Virus record (IMG/VR): IMGVR_UViG_2563366840_000001
DNA length: 64,000 bases
DNA from: a virus
Lineage: Duplodnaviria; Heunggongvirae; Uroviricota; Caudoviricetes
Reading direction: 5' to 3' (one strand)
Of the stretch, positions 5,349 to 18,125 are shown piece by piece. The notes under the pieces were generated by a model, which worked only from the letters and a program-made list of their open reading frames with translations, had not been told where the DNA came from and did not search any database. How positions within the stretch are numbered: the first letter of the stretch is position 1; every line of letters starts with the position of its first letter. A program made the translations under genes and the position numbers.

Positions 5349-5533
5349 AATGGCAGCCTCCTTTGACTAAGTTAAGGAGCTACCGCGTGAGGTTCCAATC
5401 TCAATGGCGGTAGCACTGACTGGGTTGGAACTACCGGCGTCAAAGGGAACCGGCCTGCCTTTCGGCAGCCCAGCCAGCACTACCATTGATCTCTGAGCTA
5501 AACGCTACGTATGGCCGTGCGATGGCATGACAC

Positions 5534-5555
5534 AAAAAAAGACGCTTTTGGCGTC
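5534..5555 (-). terminator. Rho-independent terminator on minus strand (GACGCC-AAAA-GGCGTC then T7), downstream of pacB
   Basis: Stem-loop plus T-run read directly. Confidence 0.55.
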
Positions 5556-5688
5556 TGTGTCGCCTTTGACATTATCCGGGGTTCCAATCCCGGCACCCGT
5601 TTTAATGAGGTGCCTGATAAGCATAAACCGAAAATGCCTCAAGGCGCAAGAGGTCAGGTTCAATGTAACATCGGTAGCTAAAAAACAC

Positions 5689-5707: not shown

Positions 5708-7192
5708 TCATTCATTAAGCCATGCCAGAGCTTCATCAACCTGCGCTTCGTCTTCGACGCTAAGCACTTCATCCTGGGGAACATAATCCGCCAGCATAGC
5801 GAAACAATATGTATCCCAATGGTCTGGTGAGTGCAGGTTGAGTTTTTTCTTCATATCCTCCTTACTCATCACCTTCCATTGACCTGCGGAGTTAATCCCT
5901 ACAGGGATTTTCGACGCTTCCTCAATAGTTTCATTACCCTTATCCAGTCTCATACGACCAGATTTTACGGCCTCTGCGGCTTGAACGTTGGCATAAGCAC
6001 GTTTATCAAAGTACAGGCTCTTATCTTCACGGCTATGCATCTTTTTACCCCAGCGTATACGCTGTACGGTAATACCATAATACTCGTACATCAGATCCGC
6101 CGTTGCTTTACCCAGCCCATCACCGTCTATCGCTATGGTGATATTTGGGAATCGCTCAGGATTACATTCTGCGAAAATTTTGGCGGCAAGCTGCGTTTCT
6201 GTAACGTCTGTGTATTCCAGCATTCGATAGTTGATTACACGGCGTTTATTTCTCTGGCCGGACACCATCATGATATTGATAACGGACTTATCCCGTCCCG
6301 TACCACCAGCAACGTCCACACATGCAAGCCAGCCCCATCCTTTGGCAATCTTGACTTTCCGCCGCGTCGCACGTTCAACCTCATCACGTCCAAGAAGGAA
6401 GCCATCCTGTGATTTAGGGAATAGTCCGCGTACCTTAATCATGTACATAGGGTTATCACGCCCGCCGTACTCCGCCAGCTTCATTTTGATAAATGCTGGC
6501 GTTACCAGCGGTGATTCCTCACTGTTAAGCGTGATCGCCGTATAAACGCCATCAGGGTTACCAGGACGCTTGGCCAGTTTATGGTGAGTATCGTAGAAAT
6601 AGCCGCTTGGGCGTGTAGGCTGTGACAATAATAAGATGCGGTTATCCTGTCCGGTAAGAGCACCAGTGATGATACCGAAAGCTCTATCACTGACACCGGA
6701 GGCTTCATCGATAATATACAGAAGATGATCTGCGTGTTCACCGGCGAGAGCTTCTTCACTTCCCAGACGAAAGCCCTTCGGTACTACAGTCCATACACCT
6801 TTACCAGTAACCTCATAGAAAGCGGTTTCTGTCAGAACAAAATAATCAGCAAGCCATGGAAAACGGCTGGTGGCAGTAGCCCAGTTTATCTTGATGTACT
6901 TGAATATACCGGTCATTACCTGCTGAATTTTGTTCGCAACGATAATGGCGCGGGCACCGGGATACATGATTATGAACAACATGATCATGATAGAAGTCAT
7001 GTCTGATTTCCCGGTACCGTGACCAGACGAAACAGATGTCTTGCTACCCTGTTCCTGCACAGACTCAATAATCAGATCCTGCTGCCAGGTAGGTGTTTTG
7101 CCGAACAAAACATCAGCGGCAGCAATCCAGTCATAACGATATAGCGCCACCAGCTCGCGCCAACGTGGATCCGTTACGCAACTTCTGGCCAT
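5708..7192 (-). CDS. pacB: PacB, terminase large subunit (494 aa)
   Basis: Walker A GHGTGKS and YIIDEA motif; follows pacA with overlapping stop/start as in P1. Confidence 0.9.
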
Positions 7193-12446: not shown

Positions 12447-13308
12447 TCTATACAGGCATGTATAACAACAACGAGCCTATTAGCTGTCAACAACGTTATT
12501 TCCTCAAATAAGAAAAAGCAGAAAACAAATTGTTTAAGGTCACAAATTGTGGCCTTGATGGAGGAGGGAGGCTTATTGGCTATGGCTAAAAATCAAATTA
12601 GACACTTCATGTTGCTGTAGCTCATCAAGATCCGAGGCCACAAAACCTTTTCCGAAAAACTTCACAAGTAACTCACTAGCCGCATCATTGTCACCTATTA
12701 CACGAAAGTCATACGGCAACGTCGCAAGTTGACGATGTAATCCTGCTGAGAAAGTCGAATCTAACAGCGCCCAGAATTCCCACCGCAGGATAATACTCGC
12801 CTCTTAATACTGTATATATGTTGTTACGATATGTTTTTCTGTCTCTAAAAAAAGATGTTAATAGAATGCTAACCATTGAAGGGGATAAAAATATACAATT
12901 CCAACAAACGTTATTTTTAACAATTTTTTTCTTTGCGTTGACTTTCCCGGACACCTTGTCTGACCGAAGGTGCGCGAAAGCCACTTTTTCCTTCCTGAGT
13001 TATCCACAAAGTTATGCACTTGCAAGAGGGCCATTTTCTACATATTGTGGTGGCTAACAGATGAAATGAATGTAGATTAATTGAAGATAAGGAGAAAATT
13101 TGAGATGCAATCATGACGTTAATAGATAGGGTCTGCATTACAGACCCCACCCGCATCAAGGAATTAGCCGTTCCCTGATGTTTTTCCGAAAACATGTGCC
13201 GTAAGCTCACGTTAACGACTTTCATTCACCGAATCCAACTATATAGGGGTTGGGTTTCTACGTCAACGTGAGCAAGTGCACCTTTACATTTGACAAGGAA
13301 CCACCTGA

Positions 13309-13446
13309 ATGAACGCTTTTTTTCAGTTCCTGAGTGCATTTTTAGATGCGCCTATTATTAGCCAGATTCTGGCTATTATCCTCATCATCGTTTTGATTTT
13401 GCTTTTAAGGTCAGTAAAAAATGGAATTATGCACTGGCTTACTTAA
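13309..13446 (+). CDS. Small hydrophobic protein (45 aa), candidate membrane peptide
   Basis: MNAFFQFLSAFLDAPIISQILAIILIIVLILLLRSVKNGIMHWLT; AAGGA 9 nt upstream of ATG; too short for the ORF track. Confidence 0.3.
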   Translation: MNAFFQFLSAFLDAPIISQILAIILIIVLILLLRSVKNGIMHWLT

Positions 13447-13521
13447 TGTTTCAGTGAAACATTAAAATCTCCTTGATGTGGAAACAATCATTTTCTGTAT
13501 GTGCTGGTGGGCACCTGTAGT

Positions 13522-13884
13522 TCAGCTTTCGTTGGCATTTAACTTCGTCTTTGCTTTCTCCACCAGCAACTTCCAGATGCCTATTTCATTAGCAGCCGCC
13601 TTGATGGCGGCATAAAAAGCATCTTGCTGATCGTAACGCTGGATCTGTTTTTTCAGTTTTGCCTCCACCAATTTAATTTCATTACGTGCTTTCTGAAGCC
13701 GCATCACCGCCCGGTTACGTCTGTTCTTGTATAGCGTGTTAATCTCTGACAATTGCTTTAATTTACCAGCCTGACTGCGGATTATCGCCTCCCTGGCTTC
13801 TGCCGTGCGTCTCATCTTATCTCTTAAGAGTTCACCGTTTTCGATAATTCTTTCAAGGTGTTTGATGTGATCTGCAACTCTCAT
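13522..13884 (-). CDS. Hypothetical coiled-coil protein (120 aa)
   Basis: ORF track; last gene of a minus-strand gene string. Confidence 0.5.
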   Translation of the reverse strand: MRVADHIKHLERIIENGELLRDKMRRTAEAREAIIRSQAGKLKQLSEINTLYKNRRNRAVMRLQKARNEIKLVEAKLKKQIQRYDQQDAFYAAIKAAANEIGIWKLLVEKAKTKLNANES

Positions 13885-14762
13885 ACTTCACCCTCGCTTG
13901 TATCACCAGCGTCCACCAACGACAATAAAGCCCTAGCCATCTTATGAACCAACAGTGCATCAATAATGCCAAGCGTATGCCCCGGCTTAATGTTTAATGC
14001 TGCCTCAAGATGACACCTTTCCAGACCGCTTTTCTCGGCTTGTTTATGATGATATGGCGTAATAACGTCGCCCAAAACACGGCTAATTCTTTCTCGTAAT
14101 TGCTGGGTGCCAGCACACTTGATCGCTGTATCGTGGAGACGGTTAACCAGTTCGCGATAAACATGCGGCTTAATGCGGATACGTTCACCGGTGACGCCCT
14201 TTCCTGGCGCAGGCACCGAACTATCCGGAATATCCGGATAGTTGCCAGCCAGTCTACGCAAAACAGCCTTAATTGCATCAATACGGTCATCATCAACTTT
14301 TTCTACAATATTGGAATTTAAATACTTCGAAGCCTTGCTATGCCAATCGCTGGTTTTAGGGTCTTGTCCATCCATCAAACGCCAAGCTTCAGCGATTAAC
14401 TCATAGCCAGTAACAGTGGCTTCCTGCGCATCACCAATCAGTTGTGTGATCTCTCTTTCAAGCATGCTTAGAGCGTTAGGCATTGGTTTTTCTTCCGGTA
14501 CTACTGGAACGGGGGGAGCGGCGTAGACCTCAATAATTCCATTATCAATAGGCCATTCTCCATCCTTGAGGTAGTCACTTGTGCCGTCAACTTGCTGTTC
14601 TGCAATGTGGAATGCACCTATTGGTTTTGCGTCCAGCGATGCCAGAGCAATTCGTGCCAGTTCTTCCGCTTCTTCTGCTGGCAGTACAACGTTGCTACCA
14701 GGTCCGTATGTTTCGCGCCACTGCTTGATTGTCAGTAGTCGCTCTTTGGTAATAGTGGTCAT
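13881..14762 (-). CDS. Hypothetical protein (293 aa)
   Basis: ORF track; 4-nt overlaps with both neighbours. Confidence 0.55.
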   Translation of the reverse strand: MTTITKERLLTIKQWRETYGPGSNVVLPAEEAEELARIALASLDAKPIGAFHIAEQQVDGTSDYLKDGEWPIDNGIIEVYAAPPVPVVPEEKPMPNALSMLEREITQLIGDAQEATVTGYELIAEAWRLMDGQDPKTSDWHSKASKYLNSNIVEKVDDDRIDAIKAVLRRLAGNYPDIPDSSVPAPGKGVTGERIRIKPHVYRELVNRLHDTAIKCAGTQQLRERISRVLGDVITPYHHKQAEKSGLERCHLEAALNIKPGHTLGIIDALLVHKMARALLSLVDAGDTSEGEV

Positions 14763-15274
14763 GCCGCGTTTCCTTCTTTCTTATTAACAATTACACCGTC
14801 ATATATTTCATTAAGGTGCCCTCTCAACTCCATGCGCCTTAATGCAGATAACATGTAATCGCATTCAACCTGCTTATTTCCAGTAAATGGCTTATCGTCA
14901 GGATTACCCCAACAGCAATTACCCTTGGGCCACCCATGTACTTTCCGTACTCTTCCGTTAACAACGTGAAGTAATCCCCAGCCAGGTGGTAAATCCTCAA
15001 TTGAAATAATTCCCGGCTCACTAATAAAGAATCGCCAGTCGCCCATTCCAAGAGACGGATTTTTACGAAAACGCTTTTTTCTATCTGCCAACAAGTCAGC
15101 ACGAGAACACTTCGCCTCTATCAGGCATGATGCTGAATTTCTGAATCCCATAGCATCTGGCTGTTCTCCGGTACTGGTTACAGCTATAAAGCGGTCATGA
15201 AAACAAACCTTGAACCCGTTGCGCTTAAGGAACTTGTACGCAATCTGACAGAGTTCGCGGTGTGTTAACGCCAT
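14759..15274 (-). CDS. Hypothetical protein with PD-(D/E)xK-like motif (171 aa)
   Basis: EQPDAMGF ... CLIEAKCS resembles a restriction-endonuclease-fold catalytic core; weak. Confidence 0.45.
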   Translation of the reverse strand: MALTHRELCQIAYKFLKRNGFKVCFHDRFIAVTSTGEQPDAMGFRNSASCLIEAKCSRADLLADRKKRFRKNPSLGMGDWRFFISEPGIISIEDLPPGWGLLHVVNGRVRKVHGWPKGNCCWGNPDDKPFTGNKQVECDYMLSALRRMELRGHLNEIYDGVIVNKKEGNAA

Positions 15275-15275
15275 A

Positions 15276-15965
15276 TCACTCTCCTTTGATGCGAATGCCA
15301 GCGTCAGACATCATATGCAGATACTCAACTGCATCCTGAACCCATTGACCGCCAATCCCGTAATAGCGATGCGTAATGATGTCGATAGTTACTAACGCGT
15401 CTTGTTCGATTAACTTCCGCAGAAACTCTTCCAGGTCACCAGTGCAGTGCTTGATGACAGGAGTTTTCCCAGGATGGCGAACAACAAGAAACTGATTTCC
15501 GACTTCACGGACTTCGTTGCTTTCCAGTTCTGCTATGCGCTTACTTCCATCCGCGATTACTCCCTCGTAATATTCACGCTGCTCGTTGAGTTTTGATTTT
15601 GCTGTTTCAAGCTCAACGCGCAGCTTCCCTACCGTTAGCGCAATATCCTCGTTCTCCTGGTCGCGGCGTTTGATGTATTGCTGGTTTCTTTCCCGTTCAT
15701 CCAGTAGTGCCAGCACGGTAGCTGGACTGGCTGCTGCGATGAATTCAGCATTGGCCTGCTGTTCCATTTGGAAATCTTCATCGAAACCGCTTTCTGGATG
15801 CGCTCCTTCAATTCTGCAAATGGGAATATATCCAGCAACTTCACGATGAATTAGCGCATCATCACCATCAAATCGGCTCTCTCCATATTCGAGCGACCAT
15901 ACACCACACGTTGCTTTTTCTGCCTTTTCACGCAGTGCCTGATAGTCAATTTTCATACTCGCCAT
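15276..15965 (-). CDS. Hypothetical protein, N-terminus resembles ead/Ea22-like family (229 aa)
   Basis: N-terminal YQALREKAEKATCGVWSL plus central coiled coil; family call from memory, unverified. Confidence 0.45.
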   Translation of the reverse strand: MASMKIDYQALREKAEKATCGVWSLEYGESRFDGDDALIHREVAGYIPICRIEGAHPESGFDEDFQMEQQANAEFIAAASPATVLALLDERERNQQYIKRRDQENEDIALTVGKLRVELETAKSKLNEQREYYEGVIADGSKRIAELESNEVREVGNQFLVVRHPGKTPVIKHCTGDLEEFLRKLIEQDALVTIDIITHRYYGIGGQWVQDAVEYLHMMSDAGIRIKGE

Positions 15966-16597
15966 CCTTCACAGTTGTAATCACGACATCCTTCAAAATC
16001 ATATGGGCTGTACTGCCAGGTAATTTTTCCGCAATGCGGACAATTCCAGCGCACCTTACCGCTTCGCGACTTTTTTCTTCTGTTTTGTTTTTTCAACCAG
16101 TCAGGTATGACCAAACCTGCGCCCTGAACCATTGTTCTGCGGTTAAAATTATTGATATTGAACGTCCGGCGCTTTGCTACATCGGCAATGGAAAATGGCA
16201 ACCAAACTATTCCTGGCTCGTTTTTGTTAGCGACGCTAAAGATGGTTGCTTTACTGAAGTCATCTGTTGGCAATCCACCGTGTTGAAGCCAGTAAACATC
16301 GTTGCCGTTCCAGCTACCTTTTTTGTAGGCCACATACGCAGTGCAATCTGACTCAATCAGGCTTTCTGTGGGGATGTACTGGCAATCAACGTGCCACAGA
16401 GCCATTGCATCCACGCTATCAGCGCAAACAGGCTGATCGATATCTCGTCCACAATTCCAGGCTTTTTGGGCTTCTTCCAGCGTGTAAACATGAGCGCGAT
16501 CGATATCAGAACTGTAACCATTGCCGTTATGGCAATGGAATGAGGCGTTATTACCCACAGTTTCACGCAAGCACATCATGTAAAAGCGGTTATTCAC
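15953..16597 (-). CDS. Hypothetical protein with C-terminal zinc-ribbon (214 aa)
   Basis: CPHCGK...CEGW cysteine pattern. Confidence 0.45.
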   Translation of the reverse strand: MNNRFYMMCLRETVGNNASFHCHNGNGYSSDIDRAHVYTLEEAQKAWNCGRDIDQPVCADSVDAMALWHVDCQYIPTESLIESDCTAYVAYKKGSWNGNDVYWLQHGGLPTDDFSKATIFSVANKNEPGIVWLPFSIADVAKRRTFNINNFNRRTMVQGAGLVIPDWLKKQNRRKKSRSGKVRWNCPHCGKITWQYSPYDFEGCRDYNCEGWRV

Positions 16598-16874
16598 TGG
16601 TTGCCTCCGCTTCCCACGTTTTCAGACTTTCACCACAGAACGGGCAAAATGAAACTCGAATAGGCGATTTAGAAAATTCACCAGACCGCAGCATGATCAG
16701 GTCTTGTGAATGAATTAATTCATGGTTATAGATTTTGTATTTCAGCAGACCTTTTCGCGTCGTGTATTCAGCGTCATGCTCCAGGGATTGTGCCAACGCC
16801 GCGCACGGTTCTATCTTGTTGCCATTAATTTGGCATTTTGACTCACTCACTGGTTGCCCCCTGAATACGCTCAA
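16590..16874 (-). CDS. Hypothetical small zinc-ribbon protein (94 aa)
   Basis: C...C...CPFCG pattern. Confidence 0.4.
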   Translation of the reverse strand: MSVFRGQPVSESKCQINGNKIEPCAALAQSLEHDAEYTTRKGLLKYKIYNHELIHSQDLIMLRSGEFSKSPIRVSFCPFCGESLKTWEAEATSE

Positions 16875-17424
16875 ACTCTATTACCCACACCCAAGGATTA
16901 GCGTTCCAACTATCTTCGCCATAAATTGATTTCCATAGGCTAGGGAAACCTGGGTAATGCTTATCGCCAATGAGGGTCGATTCTGTTGGTGCGCCCTCAG
17001 CCCTTGCATCGCATTCGCTGATATCGTTCAACCGCTCAACGCGAACGTTGGTAATTTCCAGAAGAATGCGCGATGCCCAGCGCGGCATGTGAATTGATGG
17101 CGTCCACTTTTCTGATACTGGTTTATTACAAACCTCGACCGGAACCCGGTGCGTTTGTTCTGTCCAGGAGTTACGCACGCTTGCGCGATAAACCAGCGTT
17201 GCGACGTCCGTCGCTTTGCCATGTACCCGGTAGGTTTCGCGAACCCAAATACGATCGCCCGGTTGACCATATGGACAATGCTTGGCAAGCAACTCTGCGG
17301 CCACTGCCCGTCCATAGAATTTTTCTTCAACAATCCTGCGAGTCTGTGTTTTATTCCCGCCAAGAATTGCCCGGACCATCTCATCGTTAAAAATCATGCC
17401 GCGCTCTTTCACTTCGCCTTTCAT
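16843..17424 (-). CDS. Hypothetical protein with ASCH-like N-terminus (193 aa)
   Basis: MIFNDEMVRAILGGNKTQTRR resembles the ASCH-domain N-terminal motif; from memory. Confidence 0.45.
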   Translation of the reverse strand: MKGEVKERGMIFNDEMVRAILGGNKTQTRRIVEEKFYGRAVAAELLAKHCPYGQPGDRIWVRETYRVHGKATDVATLVYRASVRNSWTEQTHRVPVEVCNKPVSEKWTPSIHMPRWASRILLEITNVRVERLNDISECDARAEGAPTESTLIGDKHYPGFPSLWKSIYGEDSWNANPWVWVIEFERIQGATSE

Positions 17425-17602
17425 GCATCCCCCTTACCCATGAGCGACGATGCCGCCAAAAGTGATAGAGAACAGCCAGAAATAGATCGCGGCCATAATG
17501 ATTTTGAATGCCGTGTTCATATTTTCAGCTCCTGTGATTGATTGGATACATGCCGCGCCTTGCGGCATGTTTTTATTTTCACTTTCTCTGTTTTAAAAAT
17601 CA

Positions 17603-17619
17603 ATATTTATTAGAGCAAT
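17603..17619. promoter_or_regulatory. C1 operator at the 3' end of the HAD-like gene
   Basis: ATATTTATTAGAGCAAT, 16 of 17 consensus positions. Confidence 0.6.
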
Positions 17620-18125
17620 TATTGTTGATGAAGAAGCGCGTTTTCATACTCCCTGACCATTAACGTAAGCACGCCGTGCCTCCTGAAAACACGCGCCACT
17701 TCAATCTTATCTTCCAGCGCGAACGCGATTTTACTTAGACCAATTTTCTTAAGGAGATCAATCTTTGCTGGGCCGTCATTTCTGTCATCGGTGGCAGGAC
17801 GCATAGATAGCAAAGGCTCAGCCCCATTTGTTACGTGCTTACGCAACCAAGCTCGTGTTTTATCCCTGGCTATCTCACAGCGCCCGGTTACAAACCAGAG
17901 CGTGTAAATGCTGGACAACTGGCGCACCATATCAATAACTGGAGTGATGGGAGCATCAGTGTCACAGGCAAGGTTAAACTCGTTCCAGTGCTCTGTTAAT
18001 GCACCTTTGCCAGGTGGTGGAAGTAAATGCAGCCTGTCTTCCGTTGCCTCTGATATTGTTCCATCAATATCAACTATGACGATATACGGACGTTCCTGGT
18101 GTGCGTGTTTATTGAAAATACTCAA
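17619..18125 (-). CDS. HAD-superfamily hydrolase-like protein (168 aa)
   Basis: IVIVDIDGTIS matches HAD motif I (DxDGT). Confidence 0.5.
   Translation of the reverse strand: MSIFNKHAHQERPYIVIVDIDGTISEATEDRLHLLPPPGKGALTEHWNEFNLACDTDAPITPVIDMVRQLSSIYTLWFVTGRCEIARDKTRAWLRKHVTNGAEPLLSMRPATDDRNDGPAKIDLLKKIGLSKIAFALEDKIEVARVFRRHGVLTLMVREYENALLHQQ

Follow-up and report, generated by a model that had tools for sequence, protein, structure and literature searches.

A probable repressor-controlled accessory operon with a variable middle in a P1/P7-type phage-plasmid

What do seven tightly packed genes do in a phage-plasmid when none of them looks like a structural or a replication gene? The question is raised by IMG/VR virus record IMGVR_UViG_2563366840_000001 (Caudoviricetes), a stretch of 64,000 nucleotides that we call the window, and by the block of genes on its minus strand at positions 13522-17424. 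We find that this block is the already-catalogued variable early operon of P1/P7-type phage-plasmids in one more allelic arrangement. The interpretation that we favor, and that we hold to be probable though far from certain, is that of a repressor-controlled early accessory operon downstream of the gene pap, whose products would serve the early decision of the phage and whose middle part is a cassette.

Seven coupled genes behind a C1 operator

The open reading frame (ORF) list for 11.5-19.5 kb of the window contains seven minus-strand ORFs, which we denote g1 to g7 in the direction of transcription. Their outer limits are exactly 13522 and 17424, as announced in the preliminary description of this DNA, which had been made from the letters and ORF translations. 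Lengths are given in amino acids (aa).

16843-17424, minus strand: g1, 193 aa
16590-16850, minus strand: g2, 86 aa from a GTG start (public annotations), or 94 aa from a TTG at 16874
15953-16597, minus strand: g3, 214 aa
15276-15965, minus strand: g4, 229 aa
14759-15274, minus strand: g5, 171 aa
13881-14762, minus strand: g6, 293 aa
13522-13884, minus strand: g7, 120 aa

From g1 to g7, the junctions are overlaps of 8, 8 and 13 nucleotides (nt), a 1-nt gap and two overlaps of 4 nt, and a purine-rich stretch resembling a Shine-Dalgarno sequence lies upstream of all seven starts. Because every member of the block matches a PHROG family, with E-values from 5e-44 to 2e-123, we regard the seven ORFs as genuine genes and not as chance ORFs. 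Homologues of g1, g3 and g5 are numerous in public data. Plus-strand ORFs of the block matched no family, barring one that lies antisense to ea22 (15586-15849) and matches phrog_13760 (E = 6e-27), a family that probably arose from antisense ORFs wrongly called in the annotation of other phages. An Rfam scan of the block returned no RNA family.

The annotated coding sequences (CDSs) of the IncY plasmid pJIE250_3 match the block over its full length at 99.5% identity. In megablast comparisons of a 5.2-kb region, phage P7 aligns at 98.4% identity with 83% of the length covered, and phage P1 aligns at the two ends only. On such sequence grounds the window is assigned to the P1/P7-type phage-plasmids.

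The principal evidence for repressor control lies in the short interval between pap and g1, which contains three elements.

17603-17619, minus strand: C1 repressor operator ATTGCTCTAATAAATAT, directly after the pap stop codon (OpmgT, formerly Op88, in P1; Op(hea) in P7)
17548-17570, no strand assigned: G+C-rich hairpin ACATGCCGCAAGGCGCGGCATGT in the mRNA leader, downstream of the promoter and ahead of the first cistron
17434-17520, minus strand: hydrophobic 28-aa ORF MNTAFKIIMAAIYFWLFSITFGGIVAHG, between the operator and g1

The operator carries one mismatch relative to the C1 consensus used, a consensus that occurs at nine sites in the window where 0.22 would be expected by chance. It is one base off the annotated OpmgT/Op88 of P1 and identical to its P7 counterpart, labeled "Op(hea); predicted to regulate expression of hea operon" in the P7 record. 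Its position overlaps the -35 hexamers of P1pmgT and P2pmgT, two promoters predicted in the P1 record. Furthermore, the 216 nt running from the pap stop codon into g1 are 99% identical among the window, P1 and P7, and the operator and leader are kept in the 38 copies that we recovered from P1-like loci. We found no promoter-like site on the coding strand within the block. We thus infer a single polycistronic transcript, repressed by C1 and hence early; since the block sits behind a C1 operator, the operon would be expected to be silent in the lysogen and to be switched on early.

The hairpin of the leader has a 10-bp stem and is kept across loci. As its T-run is found on the plus strand only, it would terminate antisense transcription and not read-through from pap. 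The 28-aa ORF, with an AGGAG ribosome-binding site 7 nt upstream, is found in P1-like loci that hold the operator end of the operon. Its 40 copies fall into seven alleles; of the six kinds of nucleotide change, four are silent and two, each seen once, alter the peptide. The ORF has no annotation in the P1 record and corresponds to a 44-aa CDS in pJIE250_3 and JL22. It is probably the first cistron of the operon, which would then most likely have, besides g1 to g7, an eighth member overlooked in the preliminary description.

On the other side of the operator, pap (17619-18125, minus strand) encodes a PNKP-type HAD phosphatase domain (PF25109, E = 9e-12) and matches PHROG polynucleotide-kinase families. 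Pap is more likely to be a nucleic-acid 3'-end-healing enzyme than a generic "acid phosphatase".

Predicted products of the block

The preliminary description had guessed at an ASCH-like protein, an Ea22-like protein, a protein with a PD-(D/E)xK motif and two zinc-ribbon proteins. The first three can be retained (g1, g4 and g5, respectively), as can one zinc ribbon (g3), and the second zinc ribbon (g2) is weakly indicated. Only g4 could be assigned by direct profile comparison: scans of the six other proteins against Pfam, NCBIfam and PADLOC gave nothing significant, and weak matches to FlgN, DndD, PglZ and M17 aminopeptidase were taken as noise.

The g4 protein matches the Ead/Ea22 profile PF13935 with 130.7 bits against a cut-off of 27 (E = 7e-38), and its residues 149-229 are about 93% identical to the C-terminal domain of lambda Ea22 (PDB 8DSX, E = 6e-47). 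These similarities identify g4 as a true Ea22 with a predicted dimeric C-terminal domain of the lambda type.

The counterpart of the g1 protein in P7 is Upf86.8, and in P1 its homology extends over residues 1-232 of PmgT (47% identity, with insertions). The g1 protein belongs to a very large family, with 44,164 clusters at 50% identity (E <= 0.001). An AlphaFold2 model computed with 55 diverse relatives as input (pLDDT 89) shows the beta-barrel of the ASCH fold, and the motif GxKTQTRR, in which K25, T28, R29 and R30 are invariant over the 55 sequences, is a variant of the GxKxxExR-type motif of ASCH proteins and aligns with GRKTITIR in YqfB. The Pfam ASCH profile (PF04266) does not match g1 itself at E <= 0.1; it does produce weak matches in 31 of the 55 relatives (best E = 2.4e-4). 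Searches of the PDB with the single sequence and with an alignment profile found no match to g1. The modeled structure identifies g1 as an ASCH-fold, that is, PUA-like, protein. The ASCH fold binds RNA or modified bases, and YqfB has amidohydrolase activity. The name "DNA primase" given to upf86.8 in the P7 RefSeq record (NC_050152) should accordingly be replaced by the ASCH-fold assignment.

A second product would be structurally related to nucleases. The g5 protein (P7 Upf89.0) is modeled with a restriction-endonuclease-like fold (pLDDT 83), and residues D40, E53 and K55, as well as E37 and D27, are invariant in 35 homologues of 59-88% identity. A profile search of the PDB aligned the catalytic motif with that of 3DNX, although weakly (E = 0.19), and the viral structural neighbors of g5 include proteins named MmcB-like. 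No Pfam or NCBIfam family was matched at E <= 0.1. We classify g5, from its predicted fold, as an MmcB-like PD-(D/E)xK protein, an assignment to be preferred to the "minor tail protein" of the same RefSeq record.

The g3 protein (P7 Upf87.6) begins with a domain to which no fold could be assigned, continues with a basic linker and ends in a zinc ribbon with four cysteines. In the CxxC...C(x4)C pattern, C186, C189 and C204 are invariant and C209 is conserved in at least 90% of 29 sequences, down to 47% identity. The family comprises about 136 clusters (at 90% identity) in Enterobacterales, Acinetobacter and one Methyloprofundus. Single-sequence searches of the PDB with g3, as with g5, gave only noise, and the PDB matches of g3 are limited to a weak zinc-ribbon similarity to eL43. 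The note "putative tyrosine protein phosphatase" on upf87.6 (NC_050152) is unsupported in Pfam and NCBIfam; a zinc-ribbon protein is encoded instead. The smaller g2 protein (P7 Upf87.4; phrog_4030, E = 5e-44) has one CxxC pair and two upstream cysteines. Its zinc-ribbon-type matches are weak (DUF6980, E = 0.009; TFS4, E = 0.009; RpoM 7OQY, E = 0.012), and we consider it as probably a zinc ribbon.

The last two genes tie the block to the P1 backbone. The g6 protein is a chimera: its N-terminus of about 100 aa is of the lambdoid EaA/DUF551-protein type, a unique middle follows, and the C-terminal 111 aa correspond to the whole of P1 PmgU with 93% identity. A single-sequence PDB search with g6 found no match. 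The g7 protein, probably a coiled-coil protein, is the orthologue of PmgV (P7 Upf90.8), with 96% identity to P1 PmgV and a match to phrog_4403 (E = 3e-77), and is encoded by the conserved last gene of the operon.

No structural or replication protein can be recognized among these products, as the preliminary description had stated, and we infer that none of them builds virions or replicates DNA. The same description went further and suggested a module related to defence. A nuclease-fold protein with an intact catalytic motif might indeed, together with its partners, attack other phages and so protect the lysogen or exclude superinfecting phages, and prophages and phage-plasmids often carry defence genes (PMC10879196). 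However, no PADLOC family was significantly matched (PADLOC-DB 2.0), the best being PglZ, on a short stretch of g6 (E = 0.0014, 15 bits), and Pfam and NCBIfam scans found no ATPase, NTPase, TIR or Sir2-type sensor module. Furthermore, with a C1 operator in front and no internal promoter-like site, the operon should be off in the very cell that it would have to protect, which is the wrong logic for such a function. A defence module of this kind is thus highly improbable, and we reject a classic defence island in view of the regulation and of the lack of any defence signature. What stands of the earlier proposal is a presumably early, non-structural accessory operon behind a C1 operator, to which the other term then used, "anti-host", may plausibly apply.

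Fixed ends and a variable middle

The locus is known as variable region 8 of P1-like phage-plasmids (PMC9603915), an identity that the preliminary description did not recognize. To describe its variation, we fetched 49 IMG/VR loci with PmgV as query (93-100% identity) and added annotated records; 38 loci have both pap and pmgV. In these, pap and pmgV lie between 540 and 8454 bp apart, and over 20 different lengths of this interval occur. Almost without exception the loci retain pap, the operator, the small ORF, the PmgU part and PmgV. Since raw ORF clustering of this hotspot yields many shadow ORFs, we considered only clusters confirmed by Pfam or public annotation. Alternative cargo includes DUF1382, DUF4752, DUF551 and DUF7739 proteins, a PAPS-reductase-like protein, an orphan N6/N4 DNA methylase and other Ea22 alleles; g2 is present in about 12 of the 38 P1-like loci. 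Among the loci examined, the exact architecture of the window recurs only in pJIE250_3 and in one IMG/VR contig.

Phage P1 itself has a reduced form of this arrangement. The flanks of the block (13000-14250 and 17333 onward) are P1 backbone, and P1 DNA matches the window over 13000-14250 and then only from 16992 on. Missing from P1 is thus the interval 14251-16991, which holds the 3' end of g1, all of g2 to g5 and the 5' end of g6 (about 170 codons). At the position of the block, behind OpmgT, the P1 record has pmgT, pmgU and pmgV. The C-terminal tail of PmgT (about 60 residues) matches an alternative frame over PmgU-coding DNA (window 13994-14296; P1 record 6021-6950), an indication that PmgT, as annotated with 309 aa, arose by deletion as an out-of-frame fusion. 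The P1 genes pmgT, pmgU and pmgV therefore look like a shorter, deletion-like version of a longer operon.

The P1 names, which stand for "putative morphogenetic", together with some RefSeq names ("minor tail protein", "morphogenetic protein"), imply a role in virion assembly. Three genes of the block are homologous to pmgT, pmgU and pmgV, and the operon adjoins pmgR and pmgS, which are named shtA and shtB in the P7 record (sheath structure and contraction). An alignment of the block, gene for gene, with characterized morphogenetic or regulatory genes of P1 had been proposed as the observation that would count against an accessory module. Such an alignment is obtained for g1, g7 and the C-terminus of g6, but not for the other genes, and it does not strengthen a morphogenetic reading, since pmgT, pmgU and pmgV are "putative morphogenetic" by name only and are non-essential in P1, according to CRISPR interference (CRISPRi) and earlier data (PMC10695390). 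Moreover, between 540 bp and 8.4 kb separate the anchors in otherwise similar phages, the predicted ASCH and nuclease folds are not those of virion proteins, control is by a C1 operator and the P1 record has no late promoter before the operon. We give almost no credence to a morphogenetic role.

Where does the middle come from? Window segments 14463-15302, 15521-15950 and 15910-16608 are 90-96% identical in DNA to the lambdoid/P22-like phages 611R6 and POCJ13, so that genes 3 to 5 and the start of gene 6 are lambdoid-type DNA. In the P22-like phage 611R6, a g3 homologue (96% DNA identity), Ea22, a small ORF and a DUF551 protein lie in this order between recT and xis; in the Stx-type phage POCJ13, the order is Ea22, g5, DUF551 protein. 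The transition can be located within g6, where homology to the P1 backbone stops at 14250 and homology to POCJ13 DNA begins at 14463.

Such a high level of identity implies recent transfer, and we may ask whether the cargo is largely neutral, hitch-hiking DNA kept by frequent recombination with co-resident lambdoid prophages and not by selection in P1-like elements. P1 and some other loci do well with most of the cassette deleted, g5 is annotated in pJIE250_3 as a shorter CDS of 333 nt, and fragmentary ORFs are seen in some loci. Yet none of the seven reading frames of the block is disrupted and their coupling is tight; the residues for catalysis and zinc binding do not vary in relatives down to 47-60% identity; and many phages retain these gene families in their early-left regions. 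We consider it very unlikely that the cargo is largely neutral.

A short sequence recurs at two gene boundaries of the block.

16847-16861, minus strand: first copy of the junction motif, GGGGGCAACCAGTGA, at the g1/g2 boundary, comprising the ribosome-binding site and GTG start of g2
16594-16608, minus strand: second copy of the junction motif, GGAGGCAACCAGTGA, at the g2/g3 boundary

Common to the two boundaries is GG(G/A)GGCAACCAGTGA, a sequence that supplies the gene after it with both its ribosome-binding site and its GTG start. Homology to 611R6 stops at 16608, the last base of the motif, as does megablast homology to Stx/lambdoid phages. Where loci differ in having or lacking g2, the limits of the difference coincide exactly with the two motif copies. 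Depending on the locus, one and the same g1 3' end is followed, across the motif, by g2, by g3 or by either of two Ea22 alleles, and g3 for its part comes after the motif in four different upstream contexts. A scan with the 16-mer GGAGGCAACCAGTGAG retrieved at least 120 IMG/VR stretches, with at least 130 junctions leading to at least 25 different downstream N-termini. The downstream genes at the listed junctions are mostly Ea22 alleles, along with several unrelated proteins. The genes ahead of the motif run through it in at least two reading frames and end in ...GGNQ* or ...ATSE*. The motif is found at gene boundaries of P1-like, lambdoid and P22-like phages, with different gene pairs joined. 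This pattern fits the "conserved boundary sequence" model of phage mosaicism, attributed to Susskind and Botstein (1978) and Clark et al. (2001) as cited in PMC3233612, and cassettes could plausibly pass, by way of the junction, between lambdoid prophages and P1-like plasmids that reside in the same cell.

Other parts of the window also carry elements of phage or mobile origin. Rfam detects the C4 antisense RNA of the P1 immunity region at 5403-5490 (minus strand), with an isrK-like RNA beside it (5535-5613, minus strand), and an ALIL frameshifting pseudoknot at 20935-21051 (minus strand), pointing to an insertion sequence of the IS3 family near 21 kb. The G+C content rises to 56-60% over about 34000-64000. 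The interval searched, 34-58 kb, is a Mu-like transposable prophage, with a DDE transposase, a DUF935 portal-type protein, a tail sheath and a tape measure, and shares about 95% identity with segments of two plasmids, one of Enterobacter kobei and one of E. coli; a Mu-like phage therefore lies next to or inside the P1-like backbone.

A proposed role in the early decision, and related systems

How might such an operon work? By homology with P1 and P7, we propose that, in the plasmid prophage, C1 bound to the operator at 17603-17619 would cover the overlapping promoters and keep the operon off. Infection, or inactivation of C1, would then release one polycistronic mRNA, whose cistrons would be translationally coupled through their overlapping stop and start codons. 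The predicted products are a 28-aa membrane peptide, an ASCH-fold protein, two zinc-ribbon proteins, Ea22, an MmcB-like nuclease-fold protein, an EaA/PmgU chimera and the coiled-coil protein PmgV. In the opening minutes of the lytic/lysogenic decision they may target nucleic acids and host factors, a function suggested by comparison with the homologous "ea"/exo-xis genes of the lambdoid early-left region. The ends of the operon (pap, operator and small ORF on one side, the PmgU part and PmgV on the other) would be fixed, and its middle would be a cassette swapped with lambdoid/P22-like phages, partly at the junction GGAGGCAACCAGTGA; the pattern is what we see at the gene boundaries, and exchange would be the process behind it.

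The best-studied gene of the set supports this idea to some extent. Ea22 is pro-lysogenic and is among the earliest transcribed genes in lambda and Phi24B, with a partner that is still unknown (PMC7093339; PMC10834534).

Several points weigh against an early decision operon. The term "early" derives solely from the homology of the operator and promoters. Ea22 is the only member with experimental data, and these come from integrating lambdoid phages; since integration has no part in the life of P1-like elements, a link of Ea22 with integrase, as proposed in PMC7093339, is not directly transferable. The ASCH and nuclease assignments are drawn from predicted folds, and any activity of the g1 and g5 subfamilies is putative. 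As to exchange, the junction motif may owe its conservation just to being an efficient signal for translational coupling, and most of its copies front Ea22 alleles, which could share it by descent. Finally, the variability of the cargo and the occasional orphan methylase fit counter-defence at least as well as the tuning of lysis and lysogeny.

Counter-defence is the main rival, and the present analysis does not separate it from the early decision reading. The operon would in that case be an arsenal of early, fast-evolving inhibitors or modifiers that shield phage DNA or RNA from host immunity (restriction, retrons, tRNA nucleases, modification-dependent systems), with cassettes matching the repertoires of the hosts. 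Early expression under repressor control is expected of this operon, and extreme variation in presence and absence between conserved anchors is typical of arms-race loci. Two genes found in some alleles of the locus, the orphan N6/N4 DNA methylase and the PAPS-reductase-like gene, might serve to modify DNA; ASCH belongs to the PUA-like group, which has sensors and processors of modified bases; the neighboring pap codes for a PNKP-type 3'-phosphatase, a type of end-healing enzyme; and the P1 homologues are dispensable on the laboratory host. However, the searches that we ran, which did not include an anti-defence profile library, found no likeness to a characterized anti-defence protein, and the characterized homologue Ea22 has a phenotype in lysogeny and not in anti-defence. 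A survey of the literature on Ea22 and anti-defence, and on ASCH and phage defence, returned nothing on these proteins. We consider counter-defence as possible but unlikely to be the main function.

A bolder form of this hypothesis combines function and exchange. The locus may be a plug-and-play site for counter-defence or host takeover, with cassettes swapped by homologous recombination among three groups of temperate phages that are unrelated in morphology (P1-like plasmid myoviruses, lambda-like and P22-like phages) at a dedicated motif of about 15 nt, which would serve at once as ribosome-binding site, start codon and crossover, and with at least one of the ASCH-fold, MmcB-like and 214-aa proteins neutralizing a host immune system. 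We propose this as a speculation and consider it unlikely. If one of the products proved to act in counter-defence, or to be the partner still sought in the Ea22 lysogeny pathway, the locus would be a convenient natural library of such genes.

As it stands, the block is one more combination of known lambdoid accessory genes, and the general picture is unchanged. The junction motif and the apparent origin by deletion of P1 pmgT/pmgU/pmgV are the only points that go somewhat beyond public annotations, and the motif offers a sequence-level handle on the trade in early genes between P1-like phage-plasmids and lambdoid prophages. The analysis also corrects the public names "minor tail protein", "DNA primase", "tyrosine phosphatase" and "morphogenetic".

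Among known systems, the closest are the P1 and P7 operons. In P7, upf86.8, upf87.4, upf87.6, upf88.3 (Ead/Ea22-like), upf89.0, upf89.5 and upf90.8 are annotated in this order downstream of pap. Six of the seven genes are present in P7: the window and P7 have g1, g2, g3, g5 and g7 in common at 97-100% protein identity, and they also share the C-terminus of g6. P7 differs in its Ea22 allele (37% identity) and in its gene 6, which encodes 432 aa and is thus longer than the g6 of the window with its 293 aa. P1 and P7 both have their operon in the same place, downstream of pap, behind an operator, promoter and leader 99% identical to those of the window.

Individual proteins have more distant counterparts. 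Lambda Ea22, with 182 aa, is shorter than g4 with its 229 aa; the two share the Ead_Ea22 domain and the nearly identical C-terminal domain of 81 residues seen in 8DSX. The pro-lysogenic role has been demonstrated for the lambda and Phi24B proteins only (PMC7093339). For g1, the reference set is that of the ASCH domain proteins (3S9X, PH0355 and the E. coli ac4C amidohydrolase YqfB); YqfB is about half the size of g1, which has extra conserved segments, PSIHMPRWASR and a C-terminal NPWVWV strand. The MmcB-like protein SPO1766 (PDB 3DNX) is 22% identical to g5, which carries in addition a C-terminal helical extension.

The early-left "ea"/exo-xis region of lambdoid and P22-like phages, with accessory genes such as those for Ea22, EaA, DUF551 and DUF4752 proteins, resembles the middle of the operon. 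Its gene order matches the succession g3, Ea22, g5 and EaA-type protein of the window, its DNA is 90-96% identical and the same junction motif is present at gene boundaries. By analogy, the two regions would also have repressor-controlled early transcription and dispensability in common. They differ in their setting: whereas the lambdoid genes run from pL between exo and xis, those of the window lie behind a C1-controlled P1 promoter in a plasmid prophage that does not integrate. Unlike the lambdoid region, the operon has P1-specific flanks (the ASCH-fold PmgT-type gene, PmgU and PmgV), and its g6 is an in-frame fusion of a lambdoid N-terminus to the C-terminus of P1 PmgU.

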